From the IMG/VR virus record IMGVR_UViG_2541047739_000012: DNA of 41,441 nucleotides. One strand, 5' to 3'. How positions within the stretch are numbered: the stretch's first letter is position 1; each line of letters starts with the position of its first letter. A program made the position numbers and the translations under genes. A model generated the notes under the pieces. It made no database searches. It saw nothing but the letters and a program-made list of their open reading frames with translations, and was not told the origin of the DNA. The stretch is from a virus. Taxonomy: Duplodnaviria; Heunggongvirae; Uroviricota; Caudoviricetes. Shown here piece after piece: positions 30,044-40,550 of this stretch.

Positions 30044-30199
30044 TTACTCCTCAGGTTCGTAAGCTGTGAAGACAGCGACCTCCGTCTGGCCGGTTCGGAT
30101 TCGTACCTCGCAGAGGTCTTTCCTCGTTACCAGTGCCGTCACTATGACGGTTAAACAGATGACGATCAGGGCGATTAACATCGCCTTTTGCTGCTTCAT
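30044..30199 (-). CDS. hok: Hok/Gef-family type I toxin
   Basis: 51-aa frame MKQQKAMLIALIVICLTVIVTALVTRKDLCEVRIRTGQTEVAVFTAYEPEE; single TM plus the conserved RKDLCEV motif. Confidence 0.85.
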   Translation of the reverse strand: MKQQKAMLIALIVICLTVIVTALVTRKDLCEVRIRTGQTEVAVFTAYEPEE

Positions 30200-30256
30200 A
30201 GCCTGCTTCTCCTTGCCTTTCGGCACGTAAGAGGCTAACCTAGATTTGCCGTTCAT
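30044..30256 (-). CDS. mok: Mok-like leader frame (in-frame N-terminal extension of hok)
   Basis: 70-aa ORF from ATG 30254-30256 encompassing hok in frame, as for chromosomal mok/hok pairs. Confidence 0.55.
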   Translation of the reverse strand: MNGKSRLASYVPKGKEKQAMKQQKAMLIALIVICLTVIVTALVTRKDLCEVRIRTGQTEVAVFTAYEPEE

Positions 30257-30490
30257 AGATTGAGCCTCAGATTAATGTTAAGCGTCTTGCAGGACGCGTA
30301 ATGTTAACTGGGGCTTTTCTCTATCTGCCTTTTGGTGTTCATGCCTGAGACAGATAGCCTCAAGCACCCGCTGCAATTCTACTTAACTCTCCTTTTCCCG
30401 CAAACCGTTTTTATCCCCAGCGGCAAATCGAATACACCACCAGCGCCACAGCCATTGCGATTCCTGCCGTTGTAAATGCCTCAGGCCAGG

Positions 30491-33466: not shown

Positions 33467-33892
33467 TCAATGCACAGCCACAATATTTCCTGCAGGGCCA
33501 CCACGATTCATCTGGTTGAAACCAGCGATCGCCACTGCGACAAAATCATCAGCGTCTCTCACCAGTCGTTCCCGCGTCTCCACTAGTTCCCGAAAATAGG
33601 CTGAGCTATGACTGCGCATTCGGGCCACCAGCAGAGGTGGCATTGCTTTTTCGATAGCTGGTAACAACGCCTGAATTTTTTTAACCGCATCAGGGGTGTC
33701 TTTCTCCACCCAGCGGAAAATTTTCTGAGTATTGCGAGCCAGGGCTTCCGGATGGCTGTCGTCATACAGTTCCGGGAACGTCATTCCCAGCTCGAAATAC
33801 GCTTTGGTAATTTTCGCAGCCGGTACTTTTTCGCCGTCCGGATGCGCCCAGGCATTCATCGCCATGCGGATATGTTCATGTTTGATTTTCAT
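33467..33892 (-). CDS. CII-like early regulator (YdaT-like)
   Basis: 141-aa ORF MKIKHEHIRMAMNAW..., ATG overlaps the cro-like stop (ATGA); recalled resemblance to Rac YdaT; occupies the cII position. Confidence 0.5.
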   Translation of the reverse strand: MKIKHEHIRMAMNAWAHPDGEKVPAAKITKAYFELGMTFPELYDDSHPEALARNTQKIFRWVEKDTPDAVKKIQALLPAIEKAMPPLLVARMRSHSSAYFRELVETRERLVRDADDFVAVAIAGFNQMNRGGPAGNIVAVH

Positions 33893-34116
33893 GAATCACT
33901 CTTCCTTTTGTCCCGGGTGGTATCCTTCTTTTTGTAAAGCTCTGGGTTCAAAGATAATTTTCCCTTGGAGTATGCAGCAGCTTCCGCAGCTCTCCCTTTC
34001 GGAACTATTTCACCGGGGCGCTTACGCCACATGTAAATAGCTTCGCGGGTTATCCCATAAAAATCAGCGACCCTCTGAACAGAGCCAAAAAACTGAACAA
34101 GTTCATCAACTCGCAT
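33889..34116 (-). CDS. cro: Cro-like HTH repressor (YdaS-like)
   Basis: 75-aa ORF with helix-turn-helix (FYGITREAIYMWRKR), ATG 34114-34116 with SD AGGAGAG; divergent from the cI-like gene. Confidence 0.65.
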   Translation of the reverse strand: MRVDELVQFFGSVQRVADFYGITREAIYMWRKRPGEIVPKGRAAEAAAYSKGKLSLNPELYKKKDTTRDKRKSDS

Positions 34117-34212
34117 TTTACTCTCCTAAAATCTAAGTATTTTTAGATTACAGGATAATTTTTTTTAGGTCAATGCAATCTAAAATAATTTATATTCAAC
34201 TCGCGGGAGAAA
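34117..34212. promoter_or_regulatory. immunity switch region: divergent promoters and operators
   Basis: Palindromic operator AATCTAA-gtattt-TTAGATT (34129-34148) and a weaker second site; minus-strand TTGACC-17-TAATCT promoter for cro overlapping the operator; plus-strand -10 TATATT upstream of cI. Confidence 0.55.
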
Positions 34213-34860
34213 ATGATGGAAAGCCTTGGCATCAGGCTTAAGAAACTCAGAAAAGATAAGGGACTCACCCAAGTAGAACTGGGTAAGCTTTCAGGCGTGA
34301 CTGGGGTTACTATAGGGTACTGGGAGAAAGATCTAAACGAACCCGGCAGCAAAGCTCTAAGTAAGTTAGCCCAGGCATTAGGAACTACTGAGTCCTATCT
34401 CCTGTATGGAGTATCGTCTCCTGAACTATCTTTTGTGCAGAGCAATCCAGGCACCAAGATCCCCTACTTTTCGTGGGGTGACGCGATTTCTTTCCTAATC
34501 TTAGAAGGAGAGAAAACAATGGGAAATGTCGATAGGATCACCACATTCTTTGATGTAGTGGAAGGTGATTTTGCCGTTTCAATGCCTGATGACACTATGC
34601 ATAACCCCTCAGGGTCACCAAGTATCCCGGTTGGTGCCACTGTGATCCTAAGACCAGGAGAGAGTTATAAAAATGGCAGTATCGTCGCTGTAATAGTTCC
34701 AGATCCACTTACAAATGAACCGTCTATGACTATAAAAAAATTAGTTATTGATGGAAAACTTGTGTATTTAAGCCCTCTCAATCCGCGCTATCAATCATCC
34801 TTGCTTACGCCAGAGTGTAAAATTGTTGCCGTAGCAAAAGGTGTGCAGTTCAACCTATAA
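34213..34860 (+). CDS. cI: CI-like repressor (N-terminal HTH, C-terminal S24 LexA-like peptidase domain)
   Basis: 215-aa ORF; HTH (LTQVELGKLSGVTGVTIGYWE) and a C-terminal region with S24-type features; divergent from cro across the operator region. Confidence 0.75.
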   Translation: MMESLGIRLKKLRKDKGLTQVELGKLSGVTGVTIGYWEKDLNEPGSKALSKLAQALGTTESYLLYGVSSPELSFVQSNPGTKIPYFSWGDAISFLILEGEKTMGNVDRITTFFDVVEGDFAVSMPDDTMHNPSGSPSIPVGATVILRPGESYKNGSIVAVIVPDPLTNEPSMTIKKLVIDGKLVYLSPLNPRYQSSLLTPECKIVAVAKGVQFNL

Positions 34861-34882
34861 CCCTGCTATGTCCTTGAACTTA

Positions 34883-34908
34883 AGGTCGGTTATGCCGACC
34901 TTTTTTTT
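34883..34908 (+). terminator. intrinsic terminator after cI
   Basis: Stem GGTCGG / CCGACC with 5-nt loop, followed by TTTTTTTT. Confidence 0.75.
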
Positions 34909-34913
34909 AAATT

Positions 34914-34962
34914 AATTTAGATTCCCCTTGACTATAAAACTAAATACTTTTAGATTTATTGC
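34914..34962 (+). promoter_or_regulatory. PL-like early-left promoter with operator half-sites
   Basis: -35 TTGACT (34928-34933), 17-bp spacer, -10 TAGATT (34951-34956); TTTAGATT-type half-sites at 34916-34923 and 34949-34956 match the cI/cro operator arm. Confidence 0.5.
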
Positions 34963-35137
34963 ATACCAACCCACCCCGCCCCACAGAACGCCGGGCAATA
35001 CTTCGAGTTACCAGGCAGTGGTCAGGGGTTAAGTAGCCAGCCCGAGGCGTAAGAACATGACGGCAGGGTTCAACTTTAATAACTATGCAGCAGGTTTTTG
35101 TTCCGCTACCCCGGCGTTAAGGGGAAATGAGGTCAAC

Positions 35138-35293
35138 ATGGATACTATCGATCTTGGCAACAACGAATCTCTGGTGTACGGCGTGTTTCCCAACCAGGAC
35201 GGCACATTCACCGCGATGACGTATACCAAAAGCAAAACGTTTAAAACCGAAAATGGTGCCCGTCGCTGGCTGGAAAGAAACTCAGGTGAGTGA
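35138..35293 (+). CDS. small hypothetical early-left protein
   Basis: ORF track 35057..35293; internal ATG at 35138 has SD GAGG; 51 aa; first gene after the PL-like promoter. Confidence 0.4.
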   Translation: MDTIDLGNNESLVYGVFPNQDGTFTAMTYTKSKTFKTENGARRWLERNSGE

Positions 35294-35294
35294 T

Positions 35295-35423
35295 ATGGAT
35301 TTCGACACAATCATGGAAAAGGCTTACGAAGAATACTTCGAAGGCCTTGCCGAAGGCGAAGAAGCTCTCAGCTTCAGTGAGTTTAAACAGGCGCTTTCCA
35401 GCTCGGCAAAATCTAACGGCTGA
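35295..35423 (+). CDS. small acidic hypothetical protein (42 aa), not in the ORF track
   Basis: ATG at 35295 four nt after the upstream stop, with SD GGTGAG; translates MDFDTIMEKAYEEYFEGLAEGEEALSFSEFKQALSSSAKSNG. Confidence 0.35.
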   Translation: MDFDTIMEKAYEEYFEGLAEGEEALSFSEFKQALSSSAKSNG

Positions 35424-35452
35424 TAAGCGAAGCAGCACCGCGAGGAATCAGT

Positions 35453-35671
35453 ATGCAGAAACGAGAACCCGTCATCATCGCGCCAGACTATACCGATGAT
35501 GAACTTTATGAGTGGATGCGCCAGAAAATTAATGCAGCGCAGGATCTGAAATGGGCCAATGAAGCCAGGGCTAAGCAGGCTGAAAATCTGTCCGCTCTGG
35601 AGCAGGATATCACCAGGCTGGAAAAAGCAGCGGCATTAAGCATTGCCAGAATGATTACATACCCGCGTTAA
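35453..35671 (+). CDS. small hypothetical early-left protein
   Basis: 72-aa ORF with SD AGGAAT; predicted helical/coiled-coil (…LSALEQDITRLEKAAALS…). Confidence 0.45.
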   Translation: MQKREPVIIAPDYTDDELYEWMRQKINAAQDLKWANEARAKQAENLSALEQDITRLEKAAALSIARMITYPR

Positions 35672-36224
35672 TAGCTAACCAACGAAGCTAAGAGTTCTCC
35701 ACGGGTGAGGTGGAGTGCGTGCGCCGGACACGGGTGAGCATCCGGCACTGACAGTTTACTGAAAGGATATTTCCATGAAAAGTCAGACCATAACGCGAAA
35801 GCGCACGGCGAGGTAGCTGGTTCATAGATAGCCTGTCGTTAAATTTTCGTCGACCGTGCGCTTCCGGTTGTGGCACTCCGCGAAATGGCGCGGCGGTAAG
35901 TATGGCGGGGTTATTCCTTCCCCGTTGAGGACACCGGGTTGTCAGGTTGACCATACGCTTAAGTGACAACCCCGCTGCAACGCCCTCTGTTATCAATTTT
36001 CTGGTGACGTTTGGCGGTATCAGTTTTACTCCGTGACTGCTCTGCCGCCCTTTTTAAAGTGAATTTTGTGATGCGGTGAATGCGGCTAAGCGCACGCGGA
36101 ACAGTTAAAACCAAAAACAGTGTTATGGGTGGATTCTCTGTATCCGGCGTTAATTGTTAACTGGTTAACGTCACCTGGAGGCACCAGGCACCGCATCACA
36201 AAACTCATTGTTGAGGGCGCGATA

Positions 36225-36413
36225 ATGAAAACGTTATTACCAAACGTTAATACGTCTGAAGGTTGTTTTGAAATTGGTGTCACTATCAGTAATCCTGTAT
36301 TTACTGAAGATGCCATTAACAAAAGAAAACACGAACGGGAGTTATTAAATAAAGTATGCATTGTTTCAATGCTGGCCCGTTTACGTCTGATGCCAAAAGG
36401 ATGTGCACAATGA
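36225..36413 (+). CDS. small hypothetical protein
   Basis: Internal ATG of ORF 36120..36413 with SD GAGGGCG; 62 aa; stop overlaps the next start (ATGA). Confidence 0.4.
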   Translation: MKTLLPNVNTSEGCFEIGVTISNPVFTEDAINKRKHERELLNKVCIVSMLARLRLMPKGCAQ

Positions 36414-40460: not shown

Positions 40461-40550
40461 TGGCGGAGAGAGGGGGATTTGAACCCCCGGTGGAGTTGCC
40501 CCCACTCCGGTTTTCGAGACCGGTCCGTTCAGCCGCTCCGGCATCTCTCC
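40461..40550 (-). tRNA. serU: tRNA-Ser (anticodon CGA), host gene serving as prophage attachment site
   Basis: 90-nt minus-strand cloverleaf with long variable arm: acceptor GGAGAGA, anticodon arm CCGGT-CTCGAAA-ACCGG, T-loop TTCAAAT, CCA; its 3' end faces the integrase 53 bp away. Confidence 0.85.

Follow-up and report, generated by a model that had tools for sequence, protein, structure and literature searches.

The sequence and gene context of positions 34117-34962 in a 41,441-bp stretch of viral DNA (the window; IMG/VR record IMGVR_UViG_2541047739_000012) indicate that this region is very likely the immunity switch of a lambdoid Escherichia coli prophage, with dyads for the repressor at a right operator (OR) and a left operator (OL). 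OR lies in the short gap of 96-99 bp between the repressor gene and the divergently transcribed cro-like gene, and OL lies at the early-left promoter (PL) beyond the end of the repressor gene. Copies of a 20-bp dyad are clustered non-randomly in these two gaps, sit at defined places relative to promoter elements, and are conserved in related prophages. The layout is known from lambda and P22 and from the Qin (DicA/dicBp) and Rac (RacR) prophages; for the immunity type itself, no earlier description was found in the literature. The clustering, the gene context, the conserved footprints within E. coli and across genera, the build of PL, and the parallels in Rac, Qin and P22 all argue that the dyads are real operators.

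Predicted operators and promoters of the switch

The repressor/cro gap contains three candidate operators and the early-left promoter contains two (Table 1). The initial annotation had placed a single palindrome, AATCTAA-GTATTT-TTAGATT, over the -10 element of the cro promoter. This palindrome is present as OR1, but the gap also holds a strong site (OR3) and a weak one (OR2). A promoter TTGACT-17-TAGATT had likewise been proposed downstream of the terminator of the repressor gene, and a promoter scan called it at the expected place, beyond a hairpin with a T-run. The two half-sites reported around this promoter are both there, but they do not stand alone: they are the right halves of dyads with one mismatch (OL1) and three mismatches (OL2). 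The dyads follow the form AATCTAA-N6-TTAGATT over their full 20 bp. Their centers are 22 bp (OR1-OR2), 25 bp (OR2-OR3), and 33 bp (OL1-OL2) apart.

The clustering of these sites is not explained by base composition. In a motif search of both strands of the whole window, TTTAGATT was found four times (34142-34149, 34177-34184 on the minus strand, 34916-34923, and 34949-34956), and all four copies lie within the two regulatory gaps. The full dyad with up to three mismatches has five matches in the window against 1.1 expected, four of them in the two gaps. Local significance was assessed with 20,000 dinucleotide-preserving shuffles restricted to the two AT-rich gaps. Three sites with at most one mismatch are observed, compared to a mean of 0.00065 per shuffle. 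Strictly, only two further sites are an independent observation, because the consensus came from one of the three.

It is extremely unlikely that the repeats are chance occurrences in AT-rich intergenic DNA, or mere promoter elements in which TAGATT is only a -10 hexamer, with no role in protein binding. Some of the evidence fits this explanation: the window-wide count of the 7-mer TTAGATT is not significant (six against 4.0 expected, five of the six within 830 bp), the hexamers TAGATT, TATATT, and TAATCT double as -10 elements, and about 3.5% of local shuffles equal the match of OL2 alone. However, the sites have dyad symmetry, and none of the 20,000 shuffles reached three sites with at most one mismatch.

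The positions of the dyads relative to the promoters suggest how repression would work. The rightward promoter (PR) falls under the threshold of the promoter scan because its -10 matches the consensus at only three of six positions, and its build is like that of the mapped Rac PydaST promoter (PMC11879457). On the opposite strand, a candidate promoter for the repressor, resembling the lambda maintenance promoter (PRM), is followed by a Shine-Dalgarno (SD) sequence, GGGAG, at 34205-34209. The -35 position of this candidate falls on the complement of the PR -35 and is a poor fit to the consensus, as is characteristic of activator-dependent promoters. OR3 is placed at the candidate promoter exactly as OL1 is placed at PL, with its center at -16.5 and its last 6 bp forming the -10. 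The center of OR2 is approximately 41.5 bp upstream of the predicted start. In lambda, CI activates PRM from the middle operator at about -42, and positive autoregulation is therefore plausible here. At the other end of the region, homology with Rac and with thousands of other prophages starts a few bases past the PL -10, which points to the boundary of the immunity module and supports the predicted PL start.

A switch of the following kind can be proposed. A repressor dimer would bind the 20-bp dyads, AA(T/A)CTAA-N6-TTAG(A/T)TT, in which the CTAA and TTAG cores are one helical turn apart. In a lysogen, RNA polymerase would be kept from PR by repressor on OR1/OR2 and from PL by repressor on OL1/OL2. 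The block at PR would silence the side with cro, ydaT, and the replication genes, and the block at PL would silence the side with ydfABC, dicF, dicB, the exonuclease gene, and the integrase gene. Repressor bound at OR2 could activate its own promoter, and OR3 would be used for negative autoregulation or for shut-off by Cro. Protein binding, the order of occupancy, cooperativity, activation, and all of the transcription starts are predicted from the DNA sequence.

Table 1. Coordinates of the switch and of associated features in the window.
Feature	Position	Strand	Remarks
OR1, AATCTAAGTATTTTTAGATT	34130-34149		Perfect dyad, 0 mismatches; covers PR -10 and predicted PR start
OR2, AGGATAATTTTTTTTAGGTC	34152-34171		Weak dyad, 5 mismatches; overlaps PR -35; least certain operator
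OR3, AATCTAAAATAATTTATATT	34177-34196		1 mismatch; over candidate repressor-promoter -10
OL2, TTTTTAAATTAATTTAGATT	34904-34923		3 mismatches, good right half only; 4 bp upstream of PL -35
OL1, AAACTAAATACTTTTAGATT	34937-34956		1 mismatch; occupies PL spacer and -10
PR, cro promoter	34145-34173	-	Read from sequence; -35 TTGACC (34173-34168), 17-nt spacer, -10 TAATCT (34150-34145), predicted start ~34138
Candidate PRM-like -10, TATATT	34191-34196	+	Inferred from sequence; poor -35, predicted start ~34203
Intrinsic terminator of repressor transcript	34882-34910	+	Scan; 9-bp stem (hairpin 34882-34902) and T-run
PL, early-left promoter	34928-34956	+	Called by scan; -35 TTGACT, 17-nt spacer, -10 TAGATT, predicted start ~34963
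CI/C2-type repressor gene, 214 aa	34216-34860	+	HTH_3 and Peptidase_S24; helix-turn-helix and non-canonical S24 domain
cro-like gene, 75 aa	33889-34116	-	Pfam P22_Cro, E=1.2e-9; closest solved structure N15 Cro, 2HIN
ydaT-family gene, CII-like activator, second gene of rightward operon	33467-33892	-	Pfam YdaT_toxin, E=1.1e-9; PHROG 163 "CII-like transcriptional activator", E=3.5e-45
YdaT-box, TGATT-N6-AATCA	33883-33898		Over ydaT start codon; sole perfect match in window
Conserved 5' leader of early-left transcript	34961-35060	+	Begins at predicted PL start; matched across E. coli genomes
Early-left operon, presumed PL-driven: ydfA (35138-35293), ydfB, ydfC, DicF RNA (35999-36050), dicB (36225-36413)	35138-36413	+	Pfam DUF1391; Rfam DicF, 76.7 bits; annotation of near-identical records

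Conservation in related prophages

The operator positions are conserved in prophages of many enterobacteria. Protein searches found relatives of the repressor with identities from 92% down to about 40%. From contigs and genomes of more than 12 enterobacterial genera, 29 further loci were collected, and the window makes 30. The genera are Escherichia, Salmonella, Yersinia, Symbiopectobacterium, Arsenophonus, Phlomobacter, Xenorhabdus, Proteus, Rouxiella, Rahnella, Kosakonia, Kluyvera, Enterobacter, and Serratia. For 20 loci, which span more than 12 genera and repressor identities as low as about 33%, the repressor/cro gap could be aligned nearly without gaps. Twenty-four of the 25 invariant columns fall inside 34130-34196, and the remaining one is in the SD sequence of the repressor gene. 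Most of them belong to the TAA/TTA cores of OR1-OR3 or to the PR -35 and -10, within which TCAA and ATTA, respectively, are invariant. Relatives with repressors of only 33-68% identity retain both the layout and the CTAA/TTAG cores. Within E. coli, the O157:H7 allele has a single substitution in 34128-34199, and the ribosome-binding flanks on both sides are scrambled. The OR2 position is better matched in relatives than in the window, for example in locus L004 (AAGCTAATTTATTTTAGATC, two mismatches).

The early-left promoter has the same build in 21 of the 30 loci. It consists of a TTGnnn -35, 3 nt, and a 20-bp dyad, AAACTAA-N6-TTAGATT or a near variant, whose last 6 bp are the -10, and it is located 37-171 bp beyond the repressor stop codon. 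The left half-site is conserved within the spacer, which is unconstrained in ordinary promoters, and this argues for a protein-binding site. Most of the loci with this build have a second OL dyad 33-36 bp upstream. Strong versions of this second dyad are found in Yersinia, Arsenophonus, Proteus, and Xenorhabdus; OL2 of the window is weak but has the same -33 offset as the strong sites. Both the retention of AAACTAA inside the PL spacer and the invariance of the OR1 and OR3 TAA cores, which are outside any promoter hexamer, speak against chance or promoter function as the source of the repeats.

The operator is a property of the repressor family rather than of this prophage. Across the family, the consensus of the dyad is AAACTAA(G)-N-(C)TTAGTTT, and the recognition helix of the repressor is nearly constant across the loci, with the pattern V[ST][GD]V[TA][VI]GYWEK. 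The initial annotation had assigned OR and OL to an immunity specificity of this prophage. The layout is supported by the sequence comparisons, but the CTAA-N6-TTAG core is common to the repressor family across Enterobacterales. Since the core and the helix are shared family-wide, the sites define a family-level operator. Covariation of the recognition helix with operator bases was uninformative within the family because the helix is too conserved. A clade with 208-aa repressors and the canonical S24 domain (L024-L030 and L036-L038) has a different, longer dyad based on ACCAA ... TTGGT at the OR2 and OL2 positions, for example CACCAATCTAAGTTTAGTTTGGTG, which hints at another mode of recognition, or another protein, there.

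Another explanation is that the dyads are bound mainly by Cro or by the YdaT/CII-like protein and that the repressor reads something else, which appears quite unlikely. Cro shares operators with CI in lambdoid phages, and its use of these sites is expected, so it is not a true rival. For YdaT, the sequences AATC and GATT are also present in the YdaT-box, and the Rac YdaT binds in the racR-ydaS gap in addition to its own box (PMC11879457). However, the order of half-sites in the YdaT-box is the opposite (TGATT-N6-AATCA), and the box is located away from both gaps, at 33883-33898. The dyad tracks the repressor family with its conserved recognition helix, and the N-terminal domain of the repressor is nearest to P22 C2, whose 18-bp operator has the related core TAAG-N4-CTTA. 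In addition, no other repeated dyad that could be left over for the repressor was found in the two gaps.

Several points weigh against the identification of the dyads as repressor operators. OR2 and OL2 are weak by sequence, with five and three mismatches (four for OL2 in the O157 allele), and a match as good as that of OL2 arises in local shuffles at the rate given above. The PR -10 (TAATCT) and the -35 of the repressor promoter are poor, and the promoter scan called neither. The search consensus was derived from a site in the same region, and part of the conservation across loci stems from promoter elements instead of operators. Repressors that differ in sequence share one core, which makes co-immunity between particular phages uncertain. 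Finally, a literature search for the operator strings, phage names, and accession numbers found no paper describing this operator, and no binding, footprint, reporter, or transcript-start data for this immunity type were found.

Comparison with known switches and the repressor S24 domain

A close parallel is the immC region of P22. It also has divergent genes with a tripartite OR, an OL1 containing the PL -10 that follows a TTGACC -35, and a Cro of the P22_Cro family. Overall identity between P22 C2 and the window repressor is about 32%. The P22 operators were read from the P22-type phage UAB_Phi20, whose c2 match row equals that of P22. There are three, each of 18 bp and of the form ANTNAAG-N4-CTTNANT, and the 20-bp sites of the window are related to them. 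The TAA core and the spacing are shared, but in the window C/G occupies the symmetric position (ATCTAAG ... TTAGAT) and T mostly replaces the inner C. The difference at the symmetric position suggests that the specificities are related but not identical. After PL, P22 has gene 24 (N-like) and nutL, whereas the window phage has ydfABC-dicF-dicB.

The lambda switch is similar in its divergent PR and PRM, its three OR sites, and its terminator after the repressor transcript, followed by PL in the same direction. The C-terminal domains of the two repressors are homologous. Lambda OR sites have center-to-center spacings of 24 and 23 bp, close to those of the window. On the other hand, lambda operators are 17 bp long and OL has three of them (OL1-3), while only two OL sites are recognizable here. 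PR and the candidate PRM would have a single overlapping -35 position in common, and their predicted starts are about 65 bp apart, compared to 82 bp in lambda. The window has no N gene, a YdaT-type protein takes the place of CII, and the self-cleavage residues of the repressor are altered.

Qin and Rac share other parts of the region. Qin has the same early-left cargo (ydfA, ydfB, ydfC, DicF, and dicB) and the same operator placement at dicBp, with TTGACC followed by a dyad over the spacer and -10. DicA differs from the window repressor in its size (135 aa) and lack of an S24 domain, and its dyads are TGTTAG-N6-CTAACA, found in the dicC-dicA gap and over dicBp. Like the window, Rac has a YdaT-family gene with a YdaT-box at its start codon and an early-left promoter downstream of the repressor gene; its leader is about 97% identical to that of the window from the transcription start onward. 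Two dyads surround the TTGACA promoter downstream of racR, and others are found in the racR-ydaS gap. RacR also differs from the window repressor in size (158 aa) and in lacking S24, and its dyads are TAGGC-N-GCCTA. Published mapping covers both the RacR operators and the promoter of ydaS (PMC11879457). The Cro of the window belongs to the P22_Cro family and is not above threshold for the YdaS family, which sets it apart from Rac.

The repressor has the S24 fold but departs in part from the canonical self-cleavage residues. The defining features of S24 repressors are a Ser-Lys dyad and a scissile bond of the type Ala-Gly or Cys-Gly (PMC8565304). In the window repressor, Thr127 aligns with the catalytic Ser149 of lambda (DDTM versus GNSM/GDSM), so the Ser nucleophile is replaced. 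The position of lambda Ala111-Gly112 reads GDA-IS (A90-I91), so the canonical scissile bond is missing. The general-base Lys is kept, with K174 in TIKKL aligning with lambda K192. P22 C2 has the Ala-Gly bond together with the Ser, and the window repressor has neither. Thr is invariant in ten members of the clade, 49-92% identical to the window repressor (loci including L002, L004-L006, L008, and L012-L014), and their cleavage position is Ala-Ile, Ala-Met, Ala-Thr, Ala-Val, or Ser-Ile. This clade occurs in Escherichia, Salmonella, Yersinia, Symbiopectobacterium, Arsenophonus, and Phlomobacter. In the sister clade (208-210 aa), the Ser in GDSM is kept, and every sequence except one has VQAG, as in lambda. 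Two proteins from Xenorhabdus are in between, with Ser present and Ala-Gly lost.

Because the Ala-Gly bond is lost, induction may depend on a trigger different from RecA-stimulated self-cleavage. Gifsy-type repressors also lack this bond, and they are non-cleavable and controlled by LexA-regulated antirepressors, according to the work of Lemire et al. (2011) as cited in PMC10448788. However, Gifsy repressors are short and have no S24 domain, while the window repressor keeps a full S24 domain with invariant Thr and Lys. In Qin, strong repression of dicBp by DicA is relieved by the antirepressor Rem (PMC10448788). No Rem homologue was found in the window, and no antirepressor gene was recognized in the window or in the annotation of the near-identical prophage. 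An SOS-controlled antirepressor was considered and rejected: CTGT-N8-ACAG with up to one mismatch had 13 matches in the window against 14 expected, none of them perfect. The possibilities for flipping the switch include an antirepressor acting in trans from another prophage, an unrecognized antirepressor, a non-SOS route, and Thr-Lys cleavage at a non-canonical bond. It is conceivable, though doubtful, that the repressor is a Thr-Lys S24 variant that cleaves itself at a bond other than Ala-Gly, or that the switch is flipped by an induction route undescribed for S24-domain repressors.

Early-left operon and prophage setting

The genes downstream of PL are presumed to be transcribed from it. Co-transcription of ydfABC-dicF-dicB from PL is suggested by analogy with Qin (PMC10448788); the dicB coordinates were computed from the table of open reading frames (ORFs). 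Downstream of dicB on the plus strand are a gene for an 808-aa exonuclease and the integrase gene. The leader at 34961-35060 has a match in 3707 of 5426 complete E. coli genomes, most of these ~94-99% identical, with up to seven copies per genome, and Rac carries it downstream of racR.

A further explanation accepts the switch in the repressor/cro gap but places the downstream promoter outside repressor control, with ydfA-dicF-dicB silenced in another way, such as by termination in the leader. The unusual conservation of the leader, its C-rich 5' end, and the weakness of OL2 and its difference in the O157 allele are in line with this. It is nevertheless very unlikely: the spacer and -10 are precisely covered by OL1, which differs from the dyad at one position, and 21 loci share this build. 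DicA strongly represses the corresponding promoter of Qin, dicBp (PMC10448788). A leader-based layer of control could be added on top of repression at PL.

The 5' end of the leader is C-rich and G-poor, and it is possibly a Rho loading site. A role as a known RNA or as an antitermination element like HK022 put was dropped: 34940-35150 had no meaningful Rfam match at E values up to 10, the predicted fold of the leader is no better than that of shuffled sequences (z=0.28), and there is no second copy in the window. The motif GAGGCGTA(A/T)GAACATGACGG in the region 35044-35140 contains an SD-like GAGG-N9-ATG, with the ATG at 35057. In Rac and O157 this ATG begins a mini-ORF of 18-20 codons, and in the window it is fused in frame to ydfA. 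Shorter related leaders in Yersinia, Kosakonia, and Kluyvera loci (L012, L025, and L026) have a mini-ORF of 7-9 codons (MKIGMIR). The mini-ORF may encode a leader peptide.

The window holds essentially the whole prophage, and 33.4-36.5 kb is its regulatory center. The insertion is between zinT and the tRNA-Ser gene adjoining mtfA; host zinT is ~1.3 kb to the left of the window start. Positions 33889-35060 are 99.9% identical in E. coli strain 4/4 and in the GenBank phage record vB_EcoS-689R5. O157:H7 strains carry a version that is 92% identical, and at least 80% of this stretch is present in 474 of the 5426 complete E. coli genomes, including O157:H7. The two near-identical phage records were not accepted as proof of inducibility. 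Names such as 689R5 resemble the "strain, region" labels of predicted prophages, and the 689R5 record is flagged as partial.

The proteins of the switch belong to known families. The start of the repressor gene at 34216 was taken from RefSeq annotation and homologues. Among solved structures, its N-terminal domain is nearest to P22 C2 (E=3e-7) and its C-terminal domain to that of lambda cI (E of about 2e-5), and the S24 fold is matched by Pfam PF00717 (E=1.5e-10). Replication genes follow the YdaT/CII-like gene on the minus strand. The YdaT-box motif has been footprinted at the equivalent position in Rac and CP-933P; it is (T/A)TGATT-N6-AATCAA at the ydaT start, and through it YdaT activates a reverse promoter for the repressor (PMC11879457). 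The perfect box in the window is a sign of a CII-like establishment circuit, in which a reverse promoter would lie inside cro, although that promoter could not be located by consensus.

Other elements were noted elsewhere in the window. Three ORFs of 293, 87, and 143 aa (25556-27104) lie on the plus strand, opposite to the flanking late genes, in the interval from the tRNA cluster to the Q antiterminator gene. The 293-aa protein (25556-26437) matches the PADLOC candidate defense family PDC-S42 (E=4e-27) and PHROG 3243. The block is likely a moron or defense cassette; the prophage of strain 4/4, near-identical elsewhere, lacks it at the corresponding coordinates. A hok/sok type I toxin-antitoxin system is found at 30044-30369 (sok RNA, 112 bits), four phage tRNA genes are clustered at 24953-25259 upstream of the lysis genes, and the tRNA-Ser integration site is at 40464-40550. 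A full-length match to Rfam IS009 lies at 44-242, inside the tail-fiber region.

The switch provides an operator map, with five sites and three promoters, for an uncharacterized immunity group that about 9% of complete E. coli genomes carry. The design is that of lambda and P22 and is not new as a concept; its value lies in annotation, in the prediction of co-immunity, and as an entry to the Thr-containing S24 domain. The family-wide consensus AAACTAA-N6-TTAGTTT may be used to annotate related prophages across Enterobacterales. The early-left cargo includes DicF and DicB, which block host cell division, so the switch would set the timing of toxic products. If either explanation for the altered S24 domain is true, a non-SOS signal, or one that is non-canonical, would control whether pathogenic E. 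coli express DicF and DicB.

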